A stretch of 64,000 bases of DNA. Origin: Bacteroidota bacterium (GTDB lineage: Bacteria > Bacteroidota > Ignavibacteria > Palsa-1295). The notes under the pieces were generated by a model, which did not search any database, had not been told where the DNA came from, and was given only the letters and a program-made list of their open reading frames with translations. The stretch lies in assembly GCA_018266755.1 (NCBI GenBank), contig JAFDZW010000001.1, positions 85,635 through 149,634 of the forward strand. Reading direction: 5' to 3'. Below are positions 8,997 to 31,563 of this stretch, piece by piece (position 1 is the stretch's first letter; each line of letters starts with the position of its first letter). Both the position numbers and the translations under genes were made by a program.

Positions 8997-10547
8997 ATGC
9001 CACCTAAACCGGCACGTACACCCCTCCTGAGAGCGATCCAGCGAATCGCCTCGCAAGTCCTTGAAAAGCAGCAACAGTCTCAAGATACTGGTGGACATAT
9101 TGTCAGCCGGCGCGCTTTTTTGGCAGGATCTGCGGCCCTAACAGCCGGTCTGCTCGTCGGTGACCAAGTAATACTTGGTGCCGGAAAATCCAACCCTCGA
9201 ATAGTTATTATTGGGGCGGGAATGGCAGGTCTTAATGTCGCCTGGACGTTGAAAAAGGCTGGGGTCGCCTCTACACTTTATGAGGCCTCTGGAAGGGCCG
9301 GGGGACGGATGATGTCCGTTAGTAATGCCCTCATTCCGGGAGTACGGACGGAATTTGGCGGGGAATTCATCGACACCAACCATCGAGATATACACTCGCT
9401 TGCTAGTGAATTTAGCTTAAAATTGCTCGATCGGCGGAATTCGGCGATAAACGAATTAATTCGGCAAGCCTATTTTATAGACGGAAAAGTATATTCGGAA
9501 GAAGATGTCGCCGAGGCACTCAGACCATTGCTGCCGACGCTGCAATCCCATGCATCGGTCCTGACATCTGTCCCTACCTTCGAAGCACCCGGTGCTGCCG
9601 AAATACTGGACAAGACCCCACTTTCCCGCTATCTGGCCGAACTCCGTTTGCCTAATTGGCTCTGGAAGCTTCTCGAAGCTGCGTTCGTCACGGAGTATGG
9701 GCTTGAATTGGGGAAACAGTCGGCCCTCAATTTGCTGATCACCATCCCCACCGTCAATGACGACGGGTCGGTATCGATGTTCGGCGACAGCGACGAACGC
9801 TATAAGATTGCCGGGGGCAATGCAAGACTCCCAGAAGCAATTGCATCGCGATTGAATTCCCAGATCCGCTATTCAAGTGTTCTGAAGTCCGTCAGTATGA
9901 AGGCGGGTCGGTATCAACTTGAATTCGTTACCTCCGGCGCCAGTCAAACGACCGAGGCCGACATCGTCGTCCTCGCGATCCCGTTTAGCGTCCTTCGAGG
10001 CGTGACGCTTGACCTGGACCTCCCGGATTGGAAAACCCGTGCGATCCGCGAGCTCCCATACGGGACGAACACGAAAGTTATGATGGGCTTTTCGCGTCGC
10101 ATCTGGCGCGAAAAGGGGTTCGTCGGCGAAGTCTTTAGCGACGAGCAATTTCAGCTTGCCTGGGACAATACCGAACTCGAGCATTCACCGGCTGGGGCCT
10201 TAACGATCTATACCGGCGGTGATGCAGGCGTTGAGGCGACGAAGATAAAGCTGCAGGTCCAAGTCGAGTCATATCTCGAATTGTTAGAGAAAATATTCCC
10301 CGGCATTTCAAACACTCGAAATTCAAAACAGGCGCGGATGAATTGGATCGACAATCCATTTTCAAAGGGGAGCTACGCCTCCTACGGCCCCGGACACTGG
10401 ACGTCCATTCGCGGGGCGGAATTCAAGCCGATCGGCAATCTGCATTTTGCAGGTGAACACTGCAGCCTCGATTTTCAAGGCTTTATGAATGGCGCCGCCG
10501 AAACCGGTCGGCGCGCTGCCGAGAATATTCTCGCTTCCCTGAAGTAA
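8997..10547 (+). CDS. Flavin-containing amine oxidase (FAD-dependent, Tat-exported)
   Basis: Dinucleotide-binding motif RIVIIGAGMAGLNVAWTL...EASGRAGGRM, amine-oxidase C-terminal region, and an N-terminal twin-arginine signal SRRAFLAGSAALTAGLLVG. Confidence 0.7.
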   Translation: MPPKPARTPLLRAIQRIASQVLEKQQQSQDTGGHIVSRRAFLAGSAALTAGLLVGDQVILGAGKSNPRIVIIGAGMAGLNVAWTLKKAGVASTLYEASGRAGGRMMSVSNALIPGVRTEFGGEFIDTNHRDIHSLASEFSLKLLDRRNSAINELIRQAYFIDGKVYSEEDVAEALRPLLPTLQSHASVLTSVPTFEAPGAAEILDKTPLSRYLAELRLPNWLWKLLEAAFVTEYGLELGKQSALNLLITIPTVNDDGSVSMFGDSDERYKIAGGNARLPEAIASRLNSQIRYSSVLKSVSMKAGRYQLEFVTSGASQTTEADIVVLAIPFSVLRGVTLDLDLPDWKTRAIRELPYGTNTKVMMGFSRRIWREKGFVGEVFSDEQFQLAWDNTELEHSPAGALTIYTGGDAGVEATKIKLQVQVESYLELLEKIFPGISNTRNSKQARMNWIDNPFSKGSYASYGPGHWTSIRGAEFKPIGNLHFAGEHCSLDFQGFMNGAAETGRRAAENILASLK

Positions 10548-10554
10548 CCCCAAC

Positions 10555-10733
10555 TACGGCGTCTTTTTCGACGAGCGGTTTACGTTGCGGATCAACATGC
10601 TCACGCCCCAAAGGATGAGCATTGCAGGGAAGATCACGTCCCAGAGCGGGAGGTCGACGCCGAATACATTACGAAGCAGGATCGTGCCGCCTACGACGAC
10701 GAGTAATATTCCCCAAAACAGACTACCGGACAT
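10555..10733 (-). CDS. Small 2-TM membrane protein, paralogous to the N-terminal membrane region of the adjacent LiaF-like protein
   Basis: 59 aa, below the track cutoff: MSGSLFWGILLVVVGGTILLRNVFGVDLPLWDVIFPAMLILWGVSMLIRN... This resembles residues 20-60 of ORF 10758-11327, the LiaI/LiaF-type transmembrane region. Confidence 0.4.
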
Positions 10734-10757
10734 AGATACAATCTCCTTTCTCTCGAG

Positions 10758-11327
10758 TTAGAACGTGGTGGTTGACGAAGTATCCGGGTAGATCTTCAGA
10801 TCACCGAAGACCACATCGCATCGAAGATCGACGAACGGCTCGCCCTCGCGGTAGCCGGGCGATGTGTAGCGGCGCTCGCCGAAGGTCACGAGGTTGCCGT
10901 CCGGCAGACGCCCGCTGCCGAAGGCAGACGATATTTTAATCTTCATCGGAGTGTTCGGGTTTACCGTCAACGTCGCGCTGGCAAAGACCGCATCGACATC
11001 GACACGCGTACCCGGCTTCGCATTGCGCAGGTCGTACTCCGTCTTGCCGAAGACCACGCTGTGCTTGCTGCCTCCGTTGACCGTCGTCTGCGTATGATTG
11101 AACAGCACCGTATTATCGTCATCGGCCGGCGATCCCTTCGACCCAATGAGCAGGCTCACACCCCACGAGATGATAATCACCGGGATGATCACCCCCATTA
11201 CAGGAATATCGAGCTTGAAGACATTCTTCAGGATCATGAGAATGCCGGCGAGGATCAGTATCCCGGCCCAATAGGTCTCGCGAAAGAGGAAATTCATGAT
11301 GATGTTGGTTTTTGCAAAGATACGCAT
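10758..11327 (-). CDS. LiaF-like cell-envelope stress protein (N-terminal 2-TM plus C-terminal DUF2154-like beta domain)
   Basis: N-terminal ILILAGILMILKNVFKLDIPVMGVIIPVIIISWGVSLLIG membrane region, followed by a beta-rich domain with the LiaF-type pattern (GDLKIY, VDVDAVFASATLTV). Confidence 0.5.
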   Translation of the reverse strand: MRIFAKTNIIMNFLFRETYWAGILILAGILMILKNVFKLDIPVMGVIIPVIIISWGVSLLIGSKGSPADDDNTVLFNHTQTTVNGGSKHSVVFGKTEYDLRNAKPGTRVDVDAVFASATLTVNPNTPMKIKISSAFGSGRLPDGNLVTFGERRYTSPGYREGEPFVDLRCDVVFGDLKIYPDTSSTTTF

Positions 11328-11396
11328 ACCCCGCCAAGATTGTAACAGCCCCGAACCCGCATTTCGCCCAATGTCCCATTTTCTTACTCCCCACCG

Positions 11397-11522
11397 CAGT
11401 AGGACGGACTCTCAGTCCGTCCATCTTCCCACACACCACAGTAGGACGGACTCTTAGTCCGTCCACCCTTCCCACACACCCAGTAGGACGGACTCTCAGT
11501 CCGTCCATCTCTCCCACACCAC
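11397..11522. repeat. Tandem array of three 42-bp units, each with a perfect 9-bp inverted repeat (GGACGGACT-CTC-AGTCCGTCC)
   Basis: Units start at about 11397, 11439 and 11481 and are near-identical, including the inter-palindrome portion (tcttcccacacacc). There are no unique spacers. Track ORFs 11119-11859(-) and 11312-11551(+) merely translate the repeats (VGRTLSPS x3). Confidence 0.8.
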
Positions 11523-11545
11523 CCACCTTGATCCTCGCCCCACAC

Positions 11546-11758
11546 CCATAGGTGCCCATCAACCCAGTCACCCCCCAGCTAACTAATTGATTTCCCGACA
11601 TATCACACAGCACACACCACCCAACCACCTCAAATTCCGGCTTCCTGCGACAACCACGATCCCGCCGCGCCAACGCACCCCCACCATAGGTGCCCATCAA
11701 CCCGGTCACCCCCCAGCTAACTAATTGATTTATCGACATATCACACAGCACACACACC
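11546..11758. repeat. Pair of ~75-80-bp direct repeats (ccataggtgcccatcaacccRgtcaccccccagctaactaattgattt..cgacatatcacacagcacacacc), period ~138 bp
   Basis: Copy A about 11546-11628 and copy B about 11684-11758, roughly 95% identical. The region is non-coding. Confidence 0.75.
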
Positions 11759-11992
11759 AACCCGCCAGAAACAGAAACGTCCGCCGAAGCGGACGTTTCT
11801 CTGACGATCTGTCTCCCGAGCGGGGGCGCATTATTCATACCACAAATATACGGAAACATGTCCTTTTTAGCAACAGGCTAAGTGATTATTTTAGAAATTT
11901 AACAAAAGAAGCACCTACCAATCAGCCTCCCTCTCCTTGAAATGAGCTTGTCCTGAGCTTGCCGAAGGAAGAGGGCCGGGGTGAGGTCAGCC

Positions 11993-12019
11993 CAGTAGGA
12001 CGGACTCTCAGTCCGTCCA
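11993..12019. repeat. Solitary fourth copy of the GGACGGACTCTCAGTCCGTCC palindromic element
   Basis: cagtaggacggactctcagtccgtcca is identical to the core of the tandem units at 11397-11522, about 470 bp downstream. Confidence 0.75.
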
Positions 12020-12151
12020 TCCTACCGACGACACACAATTCCCATGAGAAAGAGGTTGCGATGATCACAGTTCACATGCCTCCCAGCGGACGAAACGAAT
12101 TCGGCAATTCAGGGCAGAACCTTGATGCCCCATGGAAGGGGCTTGTCAACC

Positions 12152-12379
12152 CTATGCAAAGAAATCATCTTTATTCAAGCCCATCAGACGCAATAAGTTC
12201 TTTACCACGAACTCAGGGACGGGATCGATGTGGCTGGAAAATGTGAGGGGCCGGGTAAGGTCGCTTCTGGTCCAATGCTCATGCCCGCCCGTTGTTCGCG
12301 TGCACTTGCAACCCTGCTTTTTCAGGAATGCTCTGAGTTCGTCGGGAGAAATGTTCTTGAGTTTCCGCGTTGACATCAA
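12152..12379 (-). CDS. hicA: HicA-family mRNA interferase toxin
   Basis: 75 aa with the HicA/YcfA core (ELRAFLKKQGCKCTRTTGGHEHWTRSD...HIDPVPEFVVKNLLRLMGL). It overlaps the upstream hicB by 4 nt. Confidence 0.7.
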   Translation of the reverse strand: MMSTRKLKNISPDELRAFLKKQGCKCTRTTGGHEHWTRSDLTRPLTFSSHIDPVPEFVVKNLLRLMGLNKDDFFA

Positions 12380-12762
12380 GCATACTGCGGGATTCTTATT
12401 GGTTGGCGAATGACCGTATGCGGGACCGACTCAATGATCTGTTGAAAGTGCGGATTCCTCTCCTGAAGCGTTTCGAATGACGGCGGAAATGCTGTCTTCT
12501 TCGTCTTGCCGCTAATGCTCCACCCAAGTCTGGCAAGTTCTTCGAAGATCGTCTTCTTTGCCATAGTATAGCGAACAAACTCTTCGAGTGCGATCTTGAA
12601 TGATTCTAACGCCTCGGACTCCGTCTTGCCATAACCGGACATGTCCATCGCAGCAGAATAGACAATATACGTCCCGTCCTCCTGGAAGCTGATGAGGTTC
12701 AGATTCGTCTCGACCGCAACACCCTGTTCCTTGAACTGCGCGTTTACCCTGTAGTTGCTCAT
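12376..12762 (-). CDS. hicB: HicB-family antitoxin
   Basis: Start MSNYRVNAQFKE (ATG at 12762, internal to track ORF 12376-12828). HicB N-terminal UPF0150-like domain (ISFQEDGTYIVYSAAMDMSGYGKTESEALESFKIALEEF). Confidence 0.6.
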   Translation of the reverse strand: MSNYRVNAQFKEQGVAVETNLNLISFQEDGTYIVYSAAMDMSGYGKTESEALESFKIALEEFVRYTMAKKTIFEELARLGWSISGKTKKTAFPPSFETLQERNPHFQQIIESVPHTVIRQPIRIPQYA

Positions 12763-12901
12763 TGAGCCCTTCGATAGAGATTGCTTACTGATAACAAGGT
12801 GATTTTTGGAATTGTGCCGACAGCACACCCAAGGCCCACCGAGGCGCTGTACTTGCAGCCCAGGGTTTAGGCCGCAGGCCTAAACCCTGGGTCAAGTTAG
12901 A

Positions 12902-14170
12902 TCAGAAGGGGATGATGTCTTTGATCCGGTCCAAAGGAAATTCCTTTCCAAAATACAGATAGTAGCTTGGGGAAAGCAGCGAATTCCCGTAGACCTCTCC
13001 CCCTAGCTTCAGGCCATACTTCAATTCCATCACGCGGAACCTGACCTGGTAGAACCACGACTTCGGGTCGAAGTTGATGCTGTAGTTGTTGAGGCTTCCG
13101 TCGAAGTCGGTAGACTCGATATAGTCGGTGCCGCTTTGCCAACAGTAACCGGTTACTGCTGTGATCTTGCAAGCGACATCGGCAGTCGATAGATCCAAGA
13201 GCAGACCGACCCCAAGCTCGATCTGCGAAAACCGTGAAGTATATCTGTTTTCAAGCTGGCGTTTGCGCCCAACGATCGTGTCCTTCCCGAATACGTCAAT
13301 GCTGTCGAGGAGGACGAAGTTGGCAGTCGAGCTGGAGGTATACGTGCGGTAGCCGAGATGTGGAAACGTTAAGTACACACCTTTAGCGAGCCCCTCGAGC
13401 AGGTTCAACGCTATGTTGTTCTCGGAAGATGTTGAGCTACGCGAGACTGTGCTGGGAAGGGCGTACCAAACATCGGAGTTTGCACCTGAAGTAGTATCGA
13501 AATGACGTACGTTCACGAAGTATGAATCCCGAAGCAGGTCCCTCTGGAGTGAGTCAGCTGACTTGGTTTGGACTTTTCCCGCCGTAGAGACCACCCAACC
13601 ATCGACTCCCATGGACGTGCTAACTCCGAGAATAGGCAATGCAACGTCTTTCCAGACGATCGGCATATAGAATGTGCCTTCAACGTAGGGAGAGGACACA
13701 GAAACGCTCTTGTTCGCAAAATCGAGTGCGCCTCCCACCGTAATAGCTCCGATCGACGCACGATACTCCGACTCCTTTAGATCGGCATTCTTGTCCACAA
13801 GTTCGACGAGCTCCTGGTCGATTGCTTTGCCCGAATTATCTCGAAGAACGAGCATGAACTTGGTGTTCAATTTTGCCTTGCCTTTGATCGTGAGCGGCAG
13901 CGAGTACTCCATCGCTCCGTTCGCTTTGGCGATGACCACCGATGCAGGAGGTGAGAACGCAAAGTCCACGTCGGGTTTTGCATCCACCGGAAGTGCCGCT
14001 ATATTCAGAGTATCATCCGTACTTTGGCTCGAAGGCGCAACGAACCGGATCATGATGGTCCGGTCTGTGTCTGCGACAGCGACCGGTAGTGTTCGTTGTT
14101 GGAAGTGGATACCCTGTGCTTTCACCGAGCCCGCCGCCGCAAGGAGAATCATCAGATAGATGTGTTTCAT
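12902..14170 (-). CDS. Secreted hypothetical protein, probable outer-membrane beta-barrel
   Basis: Signal peptide MKHIYLMILLAAAGSVKAQG (ATG at 14170). Beta-rich with alternating hydrophobics and a C-terminal ...DIIPF ending in an aromatic residue. No family recognised. Confidence 0.45.
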   Translation of the reverse strand: MKHIYLMILLAAAGSVKAQGIHFQQRTLPVAVADTDRTIMIRFVAPSSQSTDDTLNIAALPVDAKPDVDFAFSPPASVVIAKANGAMEYSLPLTIKGKAKLNTKFMLVLRDNSGKAIDQELVELVDKNADLKESEYRASIGAITVGGALDFANKSVSVSSPYVEGTFYMPIVWKDVALPILGVSTSMGVDGWVVSTAGKVQTKSADSLQRDLLRDSYFVNVRHFDTTSGANSDVWYALPSTVSRSSTSSENNIALNLLEGLAKGVYLTFPHLGYRTYTSSSTANFVLLDSIDVFGKDTIVGRKRQLENRYTSRFSQIELGVGLLLDLSTADVACKITAVTGYCWQSGTDYIESTDFDGSLNNYSINFDPKSWFYQVRFRVMELKYGLKLGGEVYGNSLLSPSYYLYFGKEFPLDRIKDIIPF

Positions 14171-14207
14171 AGTAAGTGATGTGATTGTTGATGACAAAAC
14201 GAAAAAA

Positions 14208-17200
14208 CTACTCCATCCTCAACCCCGCGATCTCCTTCACCGCTTTCACCGTTTCGAGGCTGACCGTGATGACTTGTTTGATGAGGCGTAGGATATAGCC
14301 CTCGTCATCCTCGCGGTTCGGGTCGTTGGTGATGCCGCTGCGTTTGTCGGTCGAGACTTGGTATTGGTCGATCACCCACTCGAGCGCGCTGCGGTTACCG
14401 AGTTTGTAGTCGAACACTTCCGGCGGGATGCCGCGCAGCGTCAGGTCGGCGTTGTAGATGAGCGACGCTTTGTCTTTCGTCAGCTTCATCTTCTCCACCC
14501 GCAGGTTCAGGACCGAACCCTTGCGCCACTCTTCTTCGAGGTCGAACTCCTTCGCAGACTCGTAGTTCACGTGCAGATCGGCAAGATGCTTGCCAAGCTC
14601 CGAGATCCGGAAAAAGTCCGGCGAGATCGGCACGCGCGGTAACTCCCGGCGCAAGTTCGCCGCATACTTCGTCCGATACTCAGGATGATGCAGAATGCCG
14701 TAGATGTAATAGAAGATGTCCCACTTCGTGACCTCCTTCTTGGTCTTCAGCTTTGTTTTGAATTGCTCAAGCGCCCAATCGGTGATGTTCTCTTTTCTGT
14801 TGGTGCCATCTTCGTTGTAGGTGTAAAACGCGAAGCACTGGCTATTTGGAGTTAGCTGTACATCCGGCAAGATGTTTGTCGCGAGCGCCGAGAAAGGCGA
14901 ACTCATTCCAATGCCGTGCAGACTTATCACAAGATTTTCCTTCTCCGATTCCGGGGTAGGCAATATCCGTGTAAACTGGTAGGTTCGCTCTATTAATGCC
15001 TTCTCAAAGTAGACGAATTGACGTTCAAAGGGCCTCTGTAGTACCACCCGGACATTTTCATCATCAACAATCAGCTGCTTACCTTTGCGCAATTTGTTCT
15101 TAAGGCCCTCGCTCCACGCAATCTTCCTGTCATCATAGTCAGTTGTGGGATCAAGTTCTAGCCGCTTTCCAGCATTAGCGAGCTTGATCAAGTGACGATT
15201 GAACTCATCGGTGAGCGTTGTAACATTCTTGAGTAATGCGCCTTCGTCGAAATTATATATCCATTGATCCCGATTTGTCTTTATTCCACTCGAGTAAATC
15301 TTGAAGATGGTACCACTACCACCAGCCGCCTTGCCTTCCTTAGTCCCCATCGCTAGGAGGCTGTCAAACCCTTCAATCATTCCGGCTGTCAACCAATTCC
15401 CTTTAGCACTTGGCTCCAAACGTTGCCAATCAATGCCCGTGACGTCAACTGCAGTGCTCAGAGCAGAATACTTTTCGCTCTTGCGAGCGAATTCATCAGT
15501 CCTCGAGTAATAAATTGACGCTGTTGTGCCCTTCTTATGAGACTTCCGCCGGACAAGGATATTTATGCTAACGCCTACCTGGATCCCAAATACGTTATGC
15601 GTTGTGCCCGACAGTTTAGGGTTCTTGCGGACATTCCCTCCGAGGTTGAAAATAAATATCTCATCAAACTCTTCAGATAGCTGCTTCCGCATGCCATCGA
15701 AAGCGACATCTTCAAGAAAGCTAGAATTTGAAACGAAAGAGATGACGCCCTCTCCATTAGCTATAACTCTGTCGCTCGCAAAGCGAAATGCCTTTACATA
15801 TGGATCAGAAAGTGCAATCTTGTTCGTTGCCCGACTTTCCTTTGAGTAAGATTCTGATACACGCTTGTCAATAACCGGATACTTACGATTCTTATTGTTA
15901 TCGTTCTCATTCACTTGGCCTGCATTGTATGGTGGATTGCCAACAATGACAAAGATTGGTGATTGCTTCTGGCGTTTGACGCGCTCCGTATTTTCTGTAG
16001 AGAACAGGGCTCCCTGGTCCGGCTCCGCAAGCTCGAACGTATCCACCAGACAGATCCCTTCGAACGCCTCATACTTCCCGACCTCGGAGTAGTACTCGTG
16101 CTCGATGTTCATGCTTGCGATGTAATAGGGCAGGAGCATGACCTCGTTGCAGTGGAGTTCGTTCTTGTATTTATGAGGTAATGCGGTGCGCTTGATCTCG
16201 CGCATGATGCGCATGATGAAGTTGCCGGTCCCGACGAAGGGGTCGAGGATATGGACGTTCTTATCCGAGAGCGAGCGGTCGAACTCGGTCTTGAGGATAT
16301 GCTCGACCGAGCGCACCATAAAATCGACGATGGGCTGCGGCGTATAGACGATGCCGTGCGTATCCGCGACCTTCACCGCGAAGCCCTGGAAGAACTTCTC
16401 ATAGACGGTGTTCAGGAAGTGCTGCTTCTGGCTCCAGTCGGTGATGGATTTCGCGCGATTTTCGAGCGCGACATAGAAATGATCGAGCGGCGCGAAGAAC
16501 TGATGGCGGTTGAAGCTCTGCGAAGTGAGGGCGTCGATGACGGTCTCTATCTCGGCGGCGATGACGTTGCGGCGCAGGAACTCGGCGTTATCGAACACCG
16601 ACGAGAATATGCGCGACGTGAGCAAGTGCTGGACCAGCATTTCCTCAATCGCAGGATCGGCAAGGTTCGGGTTGATCGAAGCACGGCAGAGCTCGGCGAA
16701 GGTCTTGAATGCCTCTTTGAAGCGAGTATTTGTTTTCTTCTCCTCCTCGATCATCGAGATAAGCTTCTCGGCTGATTCCGGGATGCGCTGTTTGAACTGC
16801 GCGACGAGTTCTTCCCAATCGGCCTGTTCGTCGGCCTTGTAGCCGAAGAACGTTTCGAGGCATGCGACGAGGCGTTCGGGCTGGGTCAGGTCGTAGGTAT
16901 CGACGAGGATGCCGTCCTGGTACAGTACAGCAAGATCAGGTTGCTGAAACAGAATGTTACTCTTGGGGTAGCCCTTTTCAAACTTCGCTTTGATCTCCTT
17001 TTTCAGATCATCTTGCGTGTCCTTTGCTTCCCAGAAACCCATGGGGGTCGTCATGGCATCAGTCAACGCACCGTCAACCGAACCCTTGTTCTTATTCGCG
17101 AGTGTGATCGTATATTCTTCGGTGAGCGTCCATTTCAGCTTCTTGGCGTAAAAGGAGAGCAGGTCGGCGAATGCCCCGCGTACAGAGGTCTCTTTGGTTA

Positions 17201-17276
17201 CGCCGTTCTTCGAGTAGATCGCGAGCGCAGCGTAGTAATTCTTAATGGGCTTATGGGACGGCTTGATGTCGAGCAT
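14208..17276 (-). CDS. Single-polypeptide type IIG/IIL restriction-modification enzyme (MmeI/PglX-like N6-adenine DNA methyltransferase with N-terminal nuclease-like region and C-terminal specificity domain)
   Basis: 1022 aa. SAM motif I ILDPFVGTGNF, catalytic motif IV VIVGNPPYNAGQ, and a C-terminal region with ILHHPEYRTKYAANLRRELPRVPI, the conserved block shared by MmeI-family and BREX PglX proteins. No separate restriction or specificity genes and no other BREX genes nearby. Confidence 0.6.
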   Translation of the reverse strand: MLDIKPSHKPIKNYYAALAIYSKNGVTKETSVRGAFADLLSFYAKKLKWTLTEEYTITLANKNKGSVDGALTDAMTTPMGFWEAKDTQDDLKKEIKAKFEKGYPKSNILFQQPDLAVLYQDGILVDTYDLTQPERLVACLETFFGYKADEQADWEELVAQFKQRIPESAEKLISMIEEEKKTNTRFKEAFKTFAELCRASINPNLADPAIEEMLVQHLLTSRIFSSVFDNAEFLRRNVIAAEIETVIDALTSQSFNRHQFFAPLDHFYVALENRAKSITDWSQKQHFLNTVYEKFFQGFAVKVADTHGIVYTPQPIVDFMVRSVEHILKTEFDRSLSDKNVHILDPFVGTGNFIMRIMREIKRTALPHKYKNELHCNEVMLLPYYIASMNIEHEYYSEVGKYEAFEGICLVDTFELAEPDQGALFSTENTERVKRQKQSPIFVIVGNPPYNAGQVNENDNNKNRKYPVIDKRVSESYSKESRATNKIALSDPYVKAFRFASDRVIANGEGVISFVSNSSFLEDVAFDGMRKQLSEEFDEIFIFNLGGNVRKNPKLSGTTHNVFGIQVGVSINILVRRKSHKKGTTASIYYSRTDEFARKSEKYSALSTAVDVTGIDWQRLEPSAKGNWLTAGMIEGFDSLLAMGTKEGKAAGGSGTIFKIYSSGIKTNRDQWIYNFDEGALLKNVTTLTDEFNRHLIKLANAGKRLELDPTTDYDDRKIAWSEGLKNKLRKGKQLIVDDENVRVVLQRPFERQFVYFEKALIERTYQFTRILPTPESEKENLVISLHGIGMSSPFSALATNILPDVQLTPNSQCFAFYTYNEDGTNRKENITDWALEQFKTKLKTKKEVTKWDIFYYIYGILHHPEYRTKYAANLRRELPRVPISPDFFRISELGKHLADLHVNYESAKEFDLEEEWRKGSVLNLRVEKMKLTKDKASLIYNADLTLRGIPPEVFDYKLGNRSALEWVIDQYQVSTDKRSGITNDPNREDDEGYILRLIKQVITVSLETVKAVKEIAGLRME

Positions 17277-17379
17277 AATGGGTACAAATATAAGTTACGG
17301 CGGGAGAATGCTTATCAATATACGGGGTAGAGGGCGTAGCGATCAGGCCGGGAGTTCGGCTACGGAGGGAAAACGAGAG

Positions 17380-17469
17380 CGGAGAGGGAGGGATTCGAAC
17401 CCTCGATAGCGCTTTACACACTATGACGGTTTAGCAAACCGTTGCCTTCAGCCACTCGGCCACCTCTCC
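17380..17469 (-). tRNA. tRNA-Ser (anticodon GCT)
   Basis: The reverse complement reads GGAGAGGTGGCCGAGTGGCTGAAGGCAACGGTTTGCTAAACCGT...GAGGGTTCGAATCCCTCCCTCTCCG. Anticodon loop TTGCTAA, long variable arm, 7-bp acceptor stem. Confidence 0.8.
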
Positions 17470-17589
17470 TGCGCTATCAGTTGTTGAAGCGAAGAGTAAA
17501 CCTCGCTTTTCTTGGAGTCGTTCCGAAATCCGTGGCTGGCGTCGGGTCGCCCAACTCATCCGCGCCCGGCGCTGTTGAGTGGGCTACGT

Positions 17590-18267
17590 ATGGCTACGCG
17601 AACCGTTGAATTGCGCACACTTGGGCCAACCCCGTATCGGCAGGTGTGGGACGTGCAGCACCGAATCTTCGACTCTCTCTTGGATGGGTCCGGGAATGAT
17701 ACGCTTATCCTGTGCGAACACAAGCCGGTCTTCACGCTCGGCCGCGTGACCGATGTGACGAACGTCCTCTTTAGCGATGCCGAACTTGCGAAGATCGGCG
17801 CGGAGAAGTTCGAGATAGAACGCGGTGGCGACGTGACATTCCATGGCCCCGGGCAGATCGTTGGATACCCGTTGTTGAATTTGGCGCACTTCAAAGAAGA
17901 TCTTGGCTGGTATCTGCGCTCGCTTGAAGAAGTGATTATTCGCACGCTAGCAACCTACGGCATCGAAGCATTTCGTGTTGAAGGACGTACCGGAGTGTGG
18001 GTAGGGAAGCCGCCGTTCGAAGAGAAGATATGCGCCATCGGTATCAAGGCATCGAGGTGGTGCACGATGCACGGGTTTGCGTTCAACGTGAATACCGATC
18101 TTCGGTACTTCGACTATATCGTTCCGTGCGGGATCAGTGATCGGAACGTGACGAGCATGAAGAAGTTGTTGGGGAGAGACGTTGATATTGCCGAGGTCCG
18201 CGACCGACTCAGCCGCGCATTTGAAGAGGTGTTTGACGTAAGACTTGTCACTACGTCAGATGAGTGA
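17590..18267 (+). CDS. lipB: Octanoyltransferase (lipoyl(octanoyl) transferase)
   Basis: Start MATRTVELRTLGPTPYRQVWD (internal Met of ORF 17512-18267). LipB motifs LCEHKPVFTLGR, RGGDVTFHGPGQIVGYPLL, KICAIGIK. Confidence 0.75.
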   Translation: MATRTVELRTLGPTPYRQVWDVQHRIFDSLLDGSGNDTLILCEHKPVFTLGRVTDVTNVLFSDAELAKIGAEKFEIERGGDVTFHGPGQIVGYPLLNLAHFKEDLGWYLRSLEEVIIRTLATYGIEAFRVEGRTGVWVGKPPFEEKICAIGIKASRWCTMHGFAFNVNTDLRYFDYIVPCGISDRNVTSMKKLLGRDVDIAEVRDRLSRAFEEVFDVRLVTTSDE

Positions 18268-28172: not shown

Positions 28173-29792
28173 TTAATGCACGATCAACATCCGTTTCGTT
28201 ATGGTGCCGACCGGAGTTTGAAGACGGTACAGGTATGTACCGGATGGCAACGATCCCGGTTTGAATACGGCAAGATGAGTGCCGGCTTCCTGACGGGCGT
28301 CGATAATACGCTCTACCTCGATGCCGGACGTATTGAATACACCGAGCGTGACGGGCATTGAGGCTGGCAATACGTATTCGATCGAAGTCTGGCTCGACAC
28401 CGGATTAGGATAGTTCTCCAATAGCATAAGTCCCGGCGCATCGCTCGATGTCACGACATTGCTTTGTGACTTTACAAGACCCAAATACTTCCACGATGCA
28501 TTCTGGCTGTATGTATTCCCGTCTCCTGCCGTGAGTACATTGCCGATGAGAGCAGTTTTATCGGTGTCGGCGCCATCGAGAAGCCACTCATACATCATCG
28601 TGGCATATATGTTGCGGAAGTCGTGGTCTTGCTGGTAGGTTAGGTTGCCGGAGCCCGCAGTAAGCGACGCAGCATCAAGAGCCGGATCGTTGCCATACAC
28701 GCCTGCATTGACCTGCGTGCCGACGATAAAGAGCGGTGCCGCAGTACCGTGATCTGTCCCGGAGCCATTTTCCTGCGGTCTGCGACCGAATTCCGAATAC
28801 GTCATCGTCAGTACTTTATCCGCCACAGCGAACGCTTCGAGGTCGTCTTGAAAGGCTTTCAGCGCATCGCTGAGGTCTTGAAGGTTTGCGCCTTGATCGC
28901 TCAATTGATTACTGTGCGTATCGTATCCACCTTGATAGACGAGATAGATCTTCGTGCCGAACCCACTTGCGATACACTGTGCGACTTGCGCGAGTTGGTC
29001 GCCGAGTGTGTTATCGGTCGGATAGGTCACCTTGTTTGTGGTGACCGAACGGTTGAGTAATGTTTTGCTATACACTTCCGTCTCTTCCTGAATCGTGCGG
29101 ACATATTCAAGTTCGACGTAAGGGATTGGCGGATTTGCGGGAATGTCGTCGTAGTTGTGAACACTCTTGTTCGCAGATGTCGGCAGTTGATTGATGGCAA
29201 TACCCATCCCACCGCTCTTGGAGAGGAATAGGTTGCTCAGTGACGCGCCGAACTGGATCCCGAGCGGTGTACTCCCATCGGGGATTTGGGATGGCGGGTA
29301 GTTTGGGTTCAGTTGGCTTAAGAAGCGGCCGATCCATCCGGTCGTCGCGTAGATATTGGAGTCGGTGGATGTATTCCAAATGTCAGTCCCTCGGAAATGT
29401 GAAAGCTCCGGGTCAGGGTACCCCACGCCTTGGACGATCGCCATCCGTTTGTTGCTGTAGAGGCTTGCAGCACCACTCATATTGAAATGAAGCGCCAGGC
29501 TCTGGTGATCGGGTAGCGGCAGGATGTTGTCGCTCGGTTTCAATCCGAGCGTTGGCCGCAGTGCACTGTAGTTCGGATCGGTGTACGGGATCACACAATT
29601 GAGACCGTCGTTGCCTCCGGCAAGCTGGACGATCACAAGTATATGATCGTTCGCCGTCGCCGATTGTGCGAGCAGGTCACGAAGCGGCGATCGGCCGAAG
29701 GCTTTCACAGGGAAACCGCCCATCATGACCGGCAACGCATTCAATGCAACGCCGATCGTGGCTCCGTGCTTTAGAAAATCGCGACGTTTCAT
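28173..29792 (-). CDS. DUF1501-family protein with Tat signal peptide and T9SS (Por) C-terminal sorting domain
   Basis: N-terminal MKRRDFLKHGATIGVALNAL is a canonical twin-arginine motif. DUF1501 core (GGYDTHSNQ). The C-terminal 80 aa (YPNPVSSQTSIEYVL...GVFNTSGIEVERII...AGTHLAVFKPGSLPSGTYLYRLQTPVGTITKRMLIVH) fit the type-A T9SS C-terminal domain. Confidence 0.65.
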   Translation of the reverse strand: MKRRDFLKHGATIGVALNALPVMMGGFPVKAFGRSPLRDLLAQSATANDHILVIVQLAGGNDGLNCVIPYTDPNYSALRPTLGLKPSDNILPLPDHQSLALHFNMSGAASLYSNKRMAIVQGVGYPDPELSHFRGTDIWNTSTDSNIYATTGWIGRFLSQLNPNYPPSQIPDGSTPLGIQFGASLSNLFLSKSGGMGIAINQLPTSANKSVHNYDDIPANPPIPYVELEYVRTIQEETEVYSKTLLNRSVTTNKVTYPTDNTLGDQLAQVAQCIASGFGTKIYLVYQGGYDTHSNQLSDQGANLQDLSDALKAFQDDLEAFAVADKVLTMTYSEFGRRPQENGSGTDHGTAAPLFIVGTQVNAGVYGNDPALDAASLTAGSGNLTYQQDHDFRNIYATMMYEWLLDGADTDKTALIGNVLTAGDGNTYSQNASWKYLGLVKSQSNVVTSSDAPGLMLLENYPNPVSSQTSIEYVLPASMPVTLGVFNTSGIEVERIIDARQEAGTHLAVFKPGSLPSGTYLYRLQTPVGTITKRMLIVH

Positions 29793-29820
29793 TCGAGTGT
29801 CTCCTATATCGGTGGGGTGA

Positions 29821-31563
29821 TTAGATGAGCTGGTATTCCGGTAATGTCATGATACTGATCGCGAAGAGCGAGACGTAGGCATCGCTCAGGTAAAAATCGG
29901 AATCCGGCAGCGAAAGCGGATTGAGTGTAGCATAGAGCGTCGCAGATTCCTTCGGTCCGAGTGCGAACGAAAGGGTTGCTGATTCGAGTGCGGTGGCAAT
30001 ATCATGACTCTTCATCGAACTGACATTCGGCAACTGGTTTGCCCACCCCGTCGGGCTAAACGTCAGCTTCACACCCCGCACCTTCGTCGAGCCGTCGAGC
30101 GGACTCGGATATGTTCCCATCACGGCGGCGATCGCGAGTCGTTGGGGCAGCGTTCCGGTCGAGACCCAGTTGTGTGCGCCGGGCCAGCCTTTGACATTCG
30201 GCGGATTTAGTAATTGCTGGCCGAGCTCCACTCCGCCGATCGCGGTGACAAGGTAGGAATAGGATACGTTCGGATCGGAATACAGATTTCCTTTTGCATC
30301 GCTTCCATTCTTGGGCGGATCGCTCGGATCGAAATTCGGCAGCGACATGCCGAAGTCGCGGATGATCCCGGCCAGGAATTCGACCGGACTCTTCAATTGA
30401 GCACCCATGACGGCGCTGTCATAGAAATGCGCACTTGAGAGCAATGCCTTCATCACCGGTTTGATCTCCCAGTTGCTTGCAACGAAGAGGTTCGCCATCG
30501 CATCGACGACCTGCGGATTCGGGACGTAATACACGAATTGCGCATAGAGCTTCGAGCAGATGAAATACGCCACGTTATAGCCCGGCGCATTCTTCCCGTC
30601 GGTTGTCGTGCCTTTGGAAAGGATAATGTTGACGATATCGGACAACTGGAATTTACCGGTCTGTCCGTAAAACGTCTCGGTATCTACCGAGTCGTGCAGA
30701 TTTGTATTGAACTGACCGACGAACGGCGCAGTCGTCGTAGGCTGCCAACCCGAGAGTGCCTTTGCAGCTTGCTGTACGTCGGTCTCAGTGTAGTTCGGCT
30801 CTCCGGTTTTTGGATCGGTCAGGCCGATGGTAAAGAGTTCTTGTAGTTCGCGCGCGTAATTCTCGTTGATGTTGTTAATGGTGTGCCCGTTCTTGATCGT
30901 ATACGTATTTTGATTGCCATTGAGGTACACGAGCATCGCAGGGTCAATGGAGATCGCATTGACAAAGTCTTTGAAATTCCCGAGTGAGTGCTGACGCAGC
31001 GTTTGATTATACACAAACGAGTATTGTGGTGTTTTGACGGTAGAAGTACCGATCACGAAATGATTGCTCCAGAAAAACGTCATCTTTTCTCGGATCGACA
31101 GGTTCTCTTTGATCATCCGGTCGAACCACCAGTTCATCACTTGCAGCGTCTGGACCGAGTTTTTCCGCAGAAGCGACTGCGCGGGGCCAGTGCTTGCTAC
31201 GGTATTGATCGTGTCTAACCAGCTTGCGAACGCTGGAGGCATCGGCTGATCGGCCAGGAGTTGATTGACGACCGCATTCATCGAGCCGAGAGCCTTCGCT
31301 GCCTGGAATTGTGAAAGCGGGACGCCAAACATGGCTCGGCCGAGAAGGTGGCGCACTTGTTGATCGCCCCACGGACCTGTATACGGCGACAGGTCGTTCG
31401 ATTCGGTTTGTAGCGGTGCGGGGTTCGGATTGCCGGTGGTTGTATATCCCGGGATCGAGTAGGCAGAGCCCTTGCCTGCCGAAGCAGTGTCTGCAAGACC
31501 AGTTGTCGCTGCTGCGGCAGCGACCGTTGCACTCGAGCTTAAAAGAAATTTCCGTCGATTCAT
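29821..31563 (-). CDS. DUF1800-family protein (Tat signal), partner of the DUF1501 protein
   Basis: MNRRKFLLSSSATVAAAAATTGLA Tat-type signal. 580 aa with DUF1800-like conserved blocks (WFDRMIKE, HFVIG). The conserved DUF1800-DUF1501 gene pair is in the usual order. Confidence 0.65.
   Translation of the reverse strand: MNRRKFLLSSSATVAAAAATTGLADTASAGKGSAYSIPGYTTTGNPNPAPLQTESNDLSPYTGPWGDQQVRHLLGRAMFGVPLSQFQAAKALGSMNAVVNQLLADQPMPPAFASWLDTINTVASTGPAQSLLRKNSVQTLQVMNWWFDRMIKENLSIREKMTFFWSNHFVIGTSTVKTPQYSFVYNQTLRQHSLGNFKDFVNAISIDPAMLVYLNGNQNTYTIKNGHTINNINENYARELQELFTIGLTDPKTGEPNYTETDVQQAAKALSGWQPTTTAPFVGQFNTNLHDSVDTETFYGQTGKFQLSDIVNIILSKGTTTDGKNAPGYNVAYFICSKLYAQFVYYVPNPQVVDAMANLFVASNWEIKPVMKALLSSAHFYDSAVMGAQLKSPVEFLAGIIRDFGMSLPNFDPSDPPKNGSDAKGNLYSDPNVSYSYLVTAIGGVELGQQLLNPPNVKGWPGAHNWVSTGTLPQRLAIAAVMGTYPSPLDGSTKVRGVKLTFSPTGWANQLPNVSSMKSHDIATALESATLSFALGPKESATLYATLNPLSLPDSDFYLSDAYVSLFAISIMTLPEYQLI

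Follow-up and report, generated by a model that had tools for sequence, protein, structure and literature searches.

The 64,000-nucleotide stretch of contig JAFDZW010000001.1 that was analysed here (positions 85,635 to 149,634 of the forward strand in assembly GCA_018266755.1 of a Bacteroidota bacterium; referred to as the window and numbered from its first letter) contains, between a gene for a LiaF-like membrane protein and hicA, four copies of a repetitive extragenic palindrome (REP) of the GTAG type, which very probably belong to a family tied to a lineage of REP-associated tyrosine transposases (RAYTs) in Candidatus Kapabacteria and related bacteria of the Fibrobacteres-Chlorobi-Bacteroidetes (FCB) group. 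REPs, which are non-autonomous, fold into hairpins when DNA is single-stranded; their cognate enzyme is an HUH/Y1 transposase, RAYT (alias TnpA-REP), whose cleavage and rejoining activity presumably spreads them. REPs of the GTAG type are defined by a GT(A/G)G head together with a palindrome (Nunvar 2010, PMC2817692; Di Nocera 2013, PMC3733652). RAYT, a Y1 HUH enzyme, acts on single-stranded DNA: on one strand it binds the hairpin together with the GTAG foot, and it cleaves and rejoins this DNA at nearby CT or CA dinucleotides (PMC8266576).

The four copies, all on the plus strand, have the form GTAG-GACGGACT-CTY-AGTCCGTC-C and are arranged as a tandem trio and a solitary fourth copy:

11392 to 11525, plus strand: three-unit head-to-tail array, each unit a REP plus a 21-nucleotide (nt) CA-rich spacer (Tandem Repeats Finder)
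11399 to 11422, plus strand: REP copy 1, GTAG head at 11399-11402 overlapping the 9-bp stem, loop CTC
11441 to 11464, plus strand: REP copy 2, GTAG head, 9-bp stem, loop CTT
11483 to 11506, plus strand: REP copy 3, GTAG head, 9-bp stem, loop CTC
11991 to 12021, plus strand: solitary REP copy, CCCAGTAGGACGGACTCTCAGTCCGTCCATC, 134 nt past the hicA stop codon

The array, which was the only one reported at this site by Tandem Repeats Finder (42-bp period, 3.1 copies, 89% matches, score 209) and by a wide margin the strongest tandem repeat of the window, repeats a 21-nt core, GGACGGACTCTCAGTCCGTCC, at 11402-11422, 11444-11464 (one mismatch, loop CTT) and 11486-11506; the solitary core is at 11998-12018. 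Further core sites with up to 3 mismatches were absent from the 64 kb, as was an inverted partner, and the expectation from shuffled sequence was 0.00. Conservation extends past the palindrome to a unit C(C/A)CAGTAGGACGGACTCTYAGTCCGTCCA(T/C)C, i.e., CCCAGTAGGACGGACTCTYAGTCCGTCCATC; within the array each such unit leads into a CA-rich tail, and the 21-nt tails between array units resemble one another. The solitary copy is identical over 31 nt to 11479-11509. As single-stranded DNA, each tandem unit was predicted to fold into a 9-bp stem with a 3-nt loop, and the array as a whole had a folding energy of -30.3 kcal/mol (z-score -8.3).

Three attributes of a GTAG-type REP were noted in every copy. 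The GT[AG]G head is present in 4 of 4, each of which reads CAGTAG-GACGGACT; the palindrome, for which 20-40 nt and a stable stem-loop are expected, has a perfect stem of 9 bp with a loop of 3 nt; and the location is extragenic, all copies lying inside an 824-bp gap in which the open reading frames (ORFs) that cover them merely translate the repeat. An earlier reading of the same DNA, made from its letters without database searches (the sequence-only reading), had correctly described tandem 42-bp palindromic repeats and a solitary copy in a gene-free gap, and had rightly called ORFs that translate the repeat (three VGRTLSPS motifs) spurious; the ORF with these motifs is at 11312-11551 (plus strand), and such ORFs should stay unannotated. 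Its particulars need some adjustment: the loop CTC that it gave to every unit is found in copies 1 and 3 but is CTT in the middle unit, the gap that it correctly placed between the LiaF-like gene and hicA measures 824 bp (11328-12151) instead of 800 bp, and the solitary copy, said to be about 470 bp away, has a core that begins 491 nt past the end of the third core.

The same REP was found dispersed in other genomes. A scan of one genome per species (596 Gb) with the pattern GGACGGACTNNNAGTCCGTCC returned at least 120 stretches, as compared with about 9-17 expected by chance according to our own estimate. Outside Gammaproteobacteria, most of the listed copies have GTA immediately before the 5' side of the stem (or, on the other strand, TAC after its 3' side), which indicates that the element is GTAG-GACGGACT-NNN-AGTCCGTC; relatives have either GTAG or GTGG where the window copies have GTAG. 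Among the matches listed, those nearest to the window copies share a CAGTR flank and a CTY loop, and the family consensus is CCAGTR-GGACGGACT-CTY-AGTCCGTCC. The REP occurs at at least five loci (fetched loci are given by L numbers) of the metagenome-assembled genome (MAG) Ca. Kapaibacterium sp. Co_metawrap_2078 (L019, L030, L091, L118 and L135), at at least four of 'bacterium ELA103' (L004, L029, L034 and L090) and at at least two of Bacteroidota bin140 (L005 and L088), and a metagenome scan with the specific pattern added 10 further contigs, including some from soil metagenomes. Given this dispersal in related MAGs, the outcome named by the sequence-only reading as fatal to its proposal, i.e., an element unique to this locus and unconserved in relatives, did not materialise. 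Most copies in relatives are situated at gene boundaries, and most are inverted doublets, CCAGTR-REP-(10-25 nt)-REP'-YACTGG, arranged as in a REP doublet forming a hairpin (REPIN); no such close inverted pair occurs in the window, where 4 of 4 copies are on the same strand.

Other matches of these scans differed in setting or sequence. REP doublets deep inside long stop-to-stop ORFs of 405-1061 aa were noted in metagenome contigs, at L123 (2269-2326), L126 (1625-1676) and L130 (9217-9266); these may be insertions of REPs into genes, such as have been reported for other families of the GTAG type. Matches from Gammaproteobacteria (GG-GGACGGACTTSAAGTCCGTCC-CC) lack the GTAG head, look like a different element and were not accepted as the same one; in MAGs of this class (L001, L012, L015, L016, L018, L020, L024 and others), a longer perfect palindrome that has the same core, GG-GGACGGACTT(C/G)AAGTCCGTCC-CC, was seen at many loci. 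No viral contig with the REP motif was found, and a link to phage was rejected on that account.

RAYT-like genes were evident directly beside the REP at several loci of other genomes. When E. coli RayT was compared with every ORF of the fetched loci (phmmer, jackhmmer), RAYT-like ORFs adjoining REPs were identified in L128, L129, L073 and L110. The L128 protein scored 27.9 bits with Pfam Y1_Tnp (threshold 23), and many of its homologues are named 'REP element-mobilizing transposase RayT' by the Joint Genome Institute (JGI). One homologue, P0084, is encoded at L135, in the same Ca. Kapaibacterium MAG as the dispersed REPs, and its gene is bracketed by inverted REPs in the canonical manner, with CCAGTG-GGACGGACTCTCAGTCCGTCC upstream and GGACGGACTAAGAGTCCGTCC-CACTGG downstream; this protein scored 87.1 bits with NCBIfam NF047646, 'REP-associated tyrosine transposase' (cut-off 80), and its sole match among solved structures was 4ER8, the E. 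coli TnpA-REP. The arrangement of RAYT-like gene and inverted REPs at L128 and L129 is like that at L135. Catalytic motifs of the predicted RAYT of the Kapabacteria lineage, DH[IV]H, WQ and Y[IM]WNN[PL], appear closest to the signature of subclass 2.4 (NH[IFV]H / WQ / YIxNNP), which occurs in Cyanobacteria, Bacteroidetes and other phyla (Quentin et al. 2018, PMC6006769), and do not fit subclasses 2.2 and 2.5, which are gammaproteobacterial. The GT[AG]G head, the dispersal of the element and the inverted copies that flank RAYT genes in relatives together support the proposal of the sequence-only reading that this is a REP-type element and the target of a RAYT encoded elsewhere.

Related RAYTs were accompanied by related REPs whose stems carry paired changes on both sides. 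Thus, the REP of a Kapabacteria MAG with a homologous RAYT is CAGTGG-CGCGGACT-CTT-AGTCCGCG, and that of a Gemmataceae MAG is GTGG-GCCAGACA-CTCT-TGTCTGGC, which is present upstream of a RAYT gene in three tandem copies with a 41-bp period; outer-stem variants in neighbouring copies were AGAC/GTCT, GAAC/GTTC and CGAC/GTCG in this sample, which is biased to the searched motif. Head-to-tail arrays comparable to that of the window are recurrent in this lineage and were noted at L128 (57-60 bp), L110 (49 bp, four copies, abutting a RAYT gene), L136 (41 bp, three copies) and L083 (39-40 bp, four copies).

The identical 9-bp stem with a GTAG head was found in at least 50 assemblies from Planctomycetota, Acidobacteriota, Chloroflexota and Kapabacteria, where it adjoins RAYTs that are only 27-30% identical to one another. 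Two of these loci, L073 and L110, have the same GACGGACT stem as the window and RAYTs just 27-30% identical to the Kapabacteria enzyme; RAYTs with 53-64% identity to the Kapaibacterium enzyme are accompanied by other stems. It is a minor possibility that these copies represent a cross-phylum REP lineage in which the stem is fixed by something other than one co-evolving RAYT and in which the 39-60 bp arrays come from RAYT action, not from slippage. The arrays, which are often directly beside a RAYT gene, would then arise from reiterated insertion next to an existing REP, and the conservation of the stem across phyla, if due to a shared host factor, would alter the understanding of REPs. Frequent transfer of REPtrons from phylum to phylum, or chance recurrence in a restricted sequence space, would explain the cross-phylum data more simply. 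REPtron-like loci in other phyla, with RAYT genes within runs of REPs that include head-to-tail arrays of 41-49 bp period, were seen at L073 (7016-7988), L110 (5438-6684) and L136 (1362-2013).

Comparison of the site between relatives placed the REP cluster exactly at the junction of conserved genes and a lineage-specific block. The nearest syntenic relatives, Candidatus Kapabacteria MAGs L132 and L134, are collinear with window positions 4653-11297, have an unrelated gene of 321-335 aa about 15-30 nt upstream of the LiaF-like gene, and lack the REP. The same REP-free layout was found in L140, which has a LiaF-like orthologue 80% identical to that of the window, and overall an unrelated gene lies directly upstream, with no REP, in relatives with LiaF-like proteins 80%, 68% and 57% identical. 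A lipoate-ligase-like gene of L132 matches window positions 17593-18021, which indicates that 11328-17500 of the window replaces five unrelated L132 genes. This block comprises the REP region, hicBA as its first gene pair, a 431-aa protein that lacks a Pfam match and whose N-terminus resembles a signal peptide, a Type ISP restriction-modification enzyme of 1022 aa and a tRNA-Ser (GCT); no integrase or transposase was found in it, and a search for a tRNA-Ser-derived attachment-site repeat at the island boundary found none. In L139 (Logan SRR24111729, an independent sample), the LiaF-like protein is in the same 90%-identity cluster as that of the window, and the REP is at the same position with a few substitutions. 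The presence of the REP in L139 and its absence in L132, L134 and L140 indicate that it is stable within the species and was gained after the split from those lineages. The site is a clean example of REPs clustered where a variable block begins, with the cluster present in a sister strain and absent in remoter syntenic relatives. It also illustrates how such repeats break short-read assemblies, the sister-strain contig ending inside the REP.

Other features of the gap and its borders were as follows:

10758 to 11327, minus strand: gene for the LiaF-like membrane protein (weak match to Pfam LiaF-TM)
11536 to 11617 and 11674 to 11755, plus strand: a pair of 82-nt direct repeats with 91% identity and a period of 138 bp, located between array and solitary REP
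11797 to 11765, minus strand: hairpin GAAACGUCCGC-UUCG-GCGGACGUUUC with a UGUUUCU tail, -41 kcal/mol, z-score -3.7, about 40 nt after the promoter match that follows
11873 to 11845, minus strand: sigma-70-like promoter match, TTGCTA-17-TATATT
12152 to 12828, minus strand: hicB-hicA toxin-antitoxin pair (hicA at 12152-12379 by Pfam HicA_toxin, hicB upstream of hicA), first genes of the variable block, whose part missing from syntenic relatives was placed at 11328-17470

The gap is bordered on each side by a minus-strand gene and holds no credible gene of its own. The LiaF-like protein, 189 aa as annotated from 11327, is 100% identical to NCBI MBS1902138.1 / JSS75_00345, JSS75 being the locus tag of the source MAG, which is labelled 'Bacteroidetes bacterium'. 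Its orthologues begin at the equivalent of the ATG at 11297, and the extra 30 nt include TATCTTTG (11322-11315), which we take to be the TAnnTTTG motif of a Bacteroidetes-type promoter; as judged from these orthologues, the annotated start is probably too far upstream, the true start probably being the ATG at 11297, and the gene-free interval is probably 30 nt longer than annotated. The position of the motif just upstream of 11297 suggests that the LiaF-like promoter is downstream of the array, and the array is probably not in the LiaF-like transcript.

The plus strand of 11328-11765 is C-rich and G-poor (C 0.43-0.45 and G 0.12-0.17, as compared with window means of 0.26 and 0.28). The minus strand of this region is thus G/T-rich, and one G-quadruplex-type motif was noted at 11538-11576. 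No match to the 82-nt repeats, which lie within this C-rich stretch, was found in any fetched locus, so that the idea of a second dispersed family gained no support there; a short spurious ORF begins in each copy (MISRHITQHT and MIYRHITQHT). The UUCG hairpin and the promoter match before it are context and no part of the REP; they may specify a short transcript (a small RNA of about 75 nt) or, in the case of the hairpin, a terminator of hicBA read-through. Rfam at gathering thresholds matched only tRNAs in the window, and in permissive mode gave only chance-level matches across 11250-12200 (e.g., rsmX, E 0.66). None of the four REP copies was called in a terminator scan, and none has a U-tract, the stem being followed by ATCT... 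on the plus strand and by TACTG... on the minus strand; the copies are therefore not classical intrinsic terminators.

The following course of events is proposed for the origin of the cluster. A REP would have been deposited at the intergenic site by a RAYT that is encoded elsewhere in the genome or has since been lost, the enzyme, by analogy to RAYTs already characterised, recognising the GTAG foot and hairpin on one strand and cutting at a nearby CA or CT. This REP with about 20 nt of flank would then have been reiterated to form the array of three 42-bp units, via slippage, via unequal exchange or through a RAYT acting repeatedly, with the fourth copy about 490 nt off from the array. Because the spacers resemble each other, the array most likely represents duplication of one REP-plus-flank unit. 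We infer the existence, present or past, of a RAYT in this genome, the route of array amplification and any effect on expression. At the DNA level, the REP most likely behaves as a selfish or near-neutral passenger. When transcribed, the solitary copy would be a stable hairpin within the 3' untranslated region (UTR) of hicBA and could protect the mRNA from 3' exonucleases.

Several observations weigh against assignment of these copies to a RAYT-linked family. No RAYT-like ORF was detected in the 64-kb window by phmmer, jackhmmer, tblastn or a hidden Markov model (HMM) of 120 RAYT homologues, and no recognisable JSS75-derived protein was present among the RAYT homologues retrieved. The four REP copies of the window are at one locus only. 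All are head-to-tail, as opposed to the mostly inverted doublets of relatives, and head-to-tail dimers are under-represented among the REPs of the 2013 survey (Di Nocera 2013, PMC3733652). Only the tiles that contained the motif were returned by the genome scan, which hence gives no copy densities for relatives. Finally, the REP model accounts neither for the 82-nt repeats nor for the C-rich, G-poor composition of the plus strand at 11328-11765. Two candidates for a RAYT or its remnant in the window were examined and discarded: a weak match at 31006-31257 is spurious, being inside a DUF1800 protein, and the 470-nt gap between the array and the solitary copy, which is near the length of a RAYT gene, showed no similarity to RAYT/TnpA.

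Retention of the element by a function at the RNA level, as a barrier to 3' exonucleases, an attenuator or an insulator between hicBA and the LiaF-like gene, with spread by RAYT as no more than its route of arrival, is compatible with its identity as a REP but was judged unlikely. The hairpins are very stable, the solitary copy is in the likely 3' UTR of hicBA, several copies in relatives are situated just past gene ends, and in E. coli REPs are known to stabilise mRNA and cause termination (cited in PMC6006769; PMC3733652). These points are offset by the lack of a U-tract or a terminator call for any copy, by the presence of a separate and better terminator-like hairpin at 11797-11765, by the position of the triple array upstream of the probable LiaF-like promoter and by the absence of the REP from close syntenic relatives. 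Much less room is left for the view that the copies are operators in duplex DNA, i.e., 9-3-9 inverted repeats bound by a dimeric transcription factor that regulates the LiaF-like gene or hicBA. Perfect inverted repeats would suit such a role, as would their placement, with three found 70-200 nt upstream of the LiaF-like gene and the fourth near hicA. The same sequence, however, is found beside unrelated genes in other genomes and flanks RAYT genes as well, its conserved GTAG/CCAGTR head is one-sided, as suits recognition of a single strand and not a symmetric operator, the loci of LiaF-like orthologues in relatives lack such sites, and the solitary copy is downstream, not upstream, of hicA. 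The operator reading is therefore largely refuted and very unlikely.

The coincidence of the cluster with the boundary between syntenic and non-syntenic DNA (window 11328-17500 in place of five genes in L132), together with the tRNA-Ser gene at the far end of the block, would also fit a recombination scar or the junction of a mobile island carrying hicBA, the Type ISP enzyme and tRNA-Ser, with the repeats as its end or attachment sites. This was considered quite improbable, since the block has no integrase or transposase, its other boundary has neither a repeat of the tRNA end nor a REP copy, the REP is dispersed independently of such islands in relatives, and viral contigs are without the motif. 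A single locus in the 64-kb window and the regular spacing of the array are what would be seen after a chance local duplication without any wider family, or in a degenerate CRISPR-like mini-array. Both are excluded: the family is widespread and tied to RAYT genes, the 21-nt spacers are alike and not unique, there is no cas gene among the genes checked in the neighbourhood of the locus, and Rfam gave no significant match.

As a GTAG-type REP, the element may be compared with several known systems. In E. coli, bacterial interspersed mosaic elements (BIMEs) are, like the copies described here, clusters of REPs with short linkers in intergenic DNA, and some BIME linker motifs bind IHF or gyrase. 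BIMEs, however, alternate in orientation and have defined, conserved linker motifs, whereas the window copies are uniform in orientation and separated by CA-rich linkers with no known motif; the description of the repeats as BIME-like in the sequence-only reading was accordingly dropped, all copies being direct. With the GTAG-tagged REPs surveyed by Di Nocera 2013 (PMC3733652), the element shares a 5' GT[AG]G head, a short G+C-rich hairpin and an extragenic site, as well as occurrence as singletons, dimers and clusters reiterated with flanking DNA and paired stem changes between sub-families. It differs in host, which here is an FCB-group (Kapabacteria-like) bacterium, and in that all window copies are head-to-tail, an orientation that was rare in the survey. 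A particularly close likeness in hairpin form was to the REP/SMAG of Stenotrophomonas maltophilia, whose perfect stem measures 8 bp and whose loop is 3 nt (PMC8266576), as compared with 9 bp and 3 nt here. With the REPIN-RAYT system of Pseudomonas and the E. coli REPtron, as outlined in Nunvar 2010 (PMC2817692) and by Bertels and Rainey (cited in PMC6006769), the relatives share inverted doublets and, at L135 and L129, a single RAYT gene between two inverted REPs; the window itself has neither an inverted doublet nor a RAYT. With the subterminal hairpins of IS200/IS605 insertion sequences, the REP has in common single-stranded hairpins for a Y1 HUH enzyme and a 5' tetranucleotide that aids the choice of cleavage site (PMC8266576), but in the window no transposase gene lies between the hairpins, and there is no separate left end or right end.

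GTAG-type REPs and RAYTs are well described, and RAYT subclasses are known in Bacteroidetes (Quentin et al. 2018, PMC6006769). The present findings document a GTAG-REP/RAYT system of canonical form for Kapabacteria and Bacteroidota (FCB group), where the 2013 survey had found Chlorobi and Bacteroidetes with CGTC-type repeats only (PMC3733652). The sequence GTAGGACGGAC did not occur in the searched literature. Overall, the element is ordinary as bacterial repeats go, though its lineage has been little studied, and the understanding of REPs is unchanged by it.

Two observations outside the REP cluster were also made. A perfect 15-bp inverted repeat, CCCAGGGTTTAGGCC-NNN-GGCCTAAACCCTGGG, is present at 12859-12891, in the 73-bp gap between the end of the gene for the 431-aa protein and the start of hicB; it is not followed by a U-tract and could be a terminator of the former gene or an operator of hicBA. 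At 28173-31563 of the window, a DUF1501 protein that carries a sorting domain for type IX secretion (Por_Secre_tail) adjoins a DUF1800 protein, which fits an origin in the FCB group (Bacteroidota-like).

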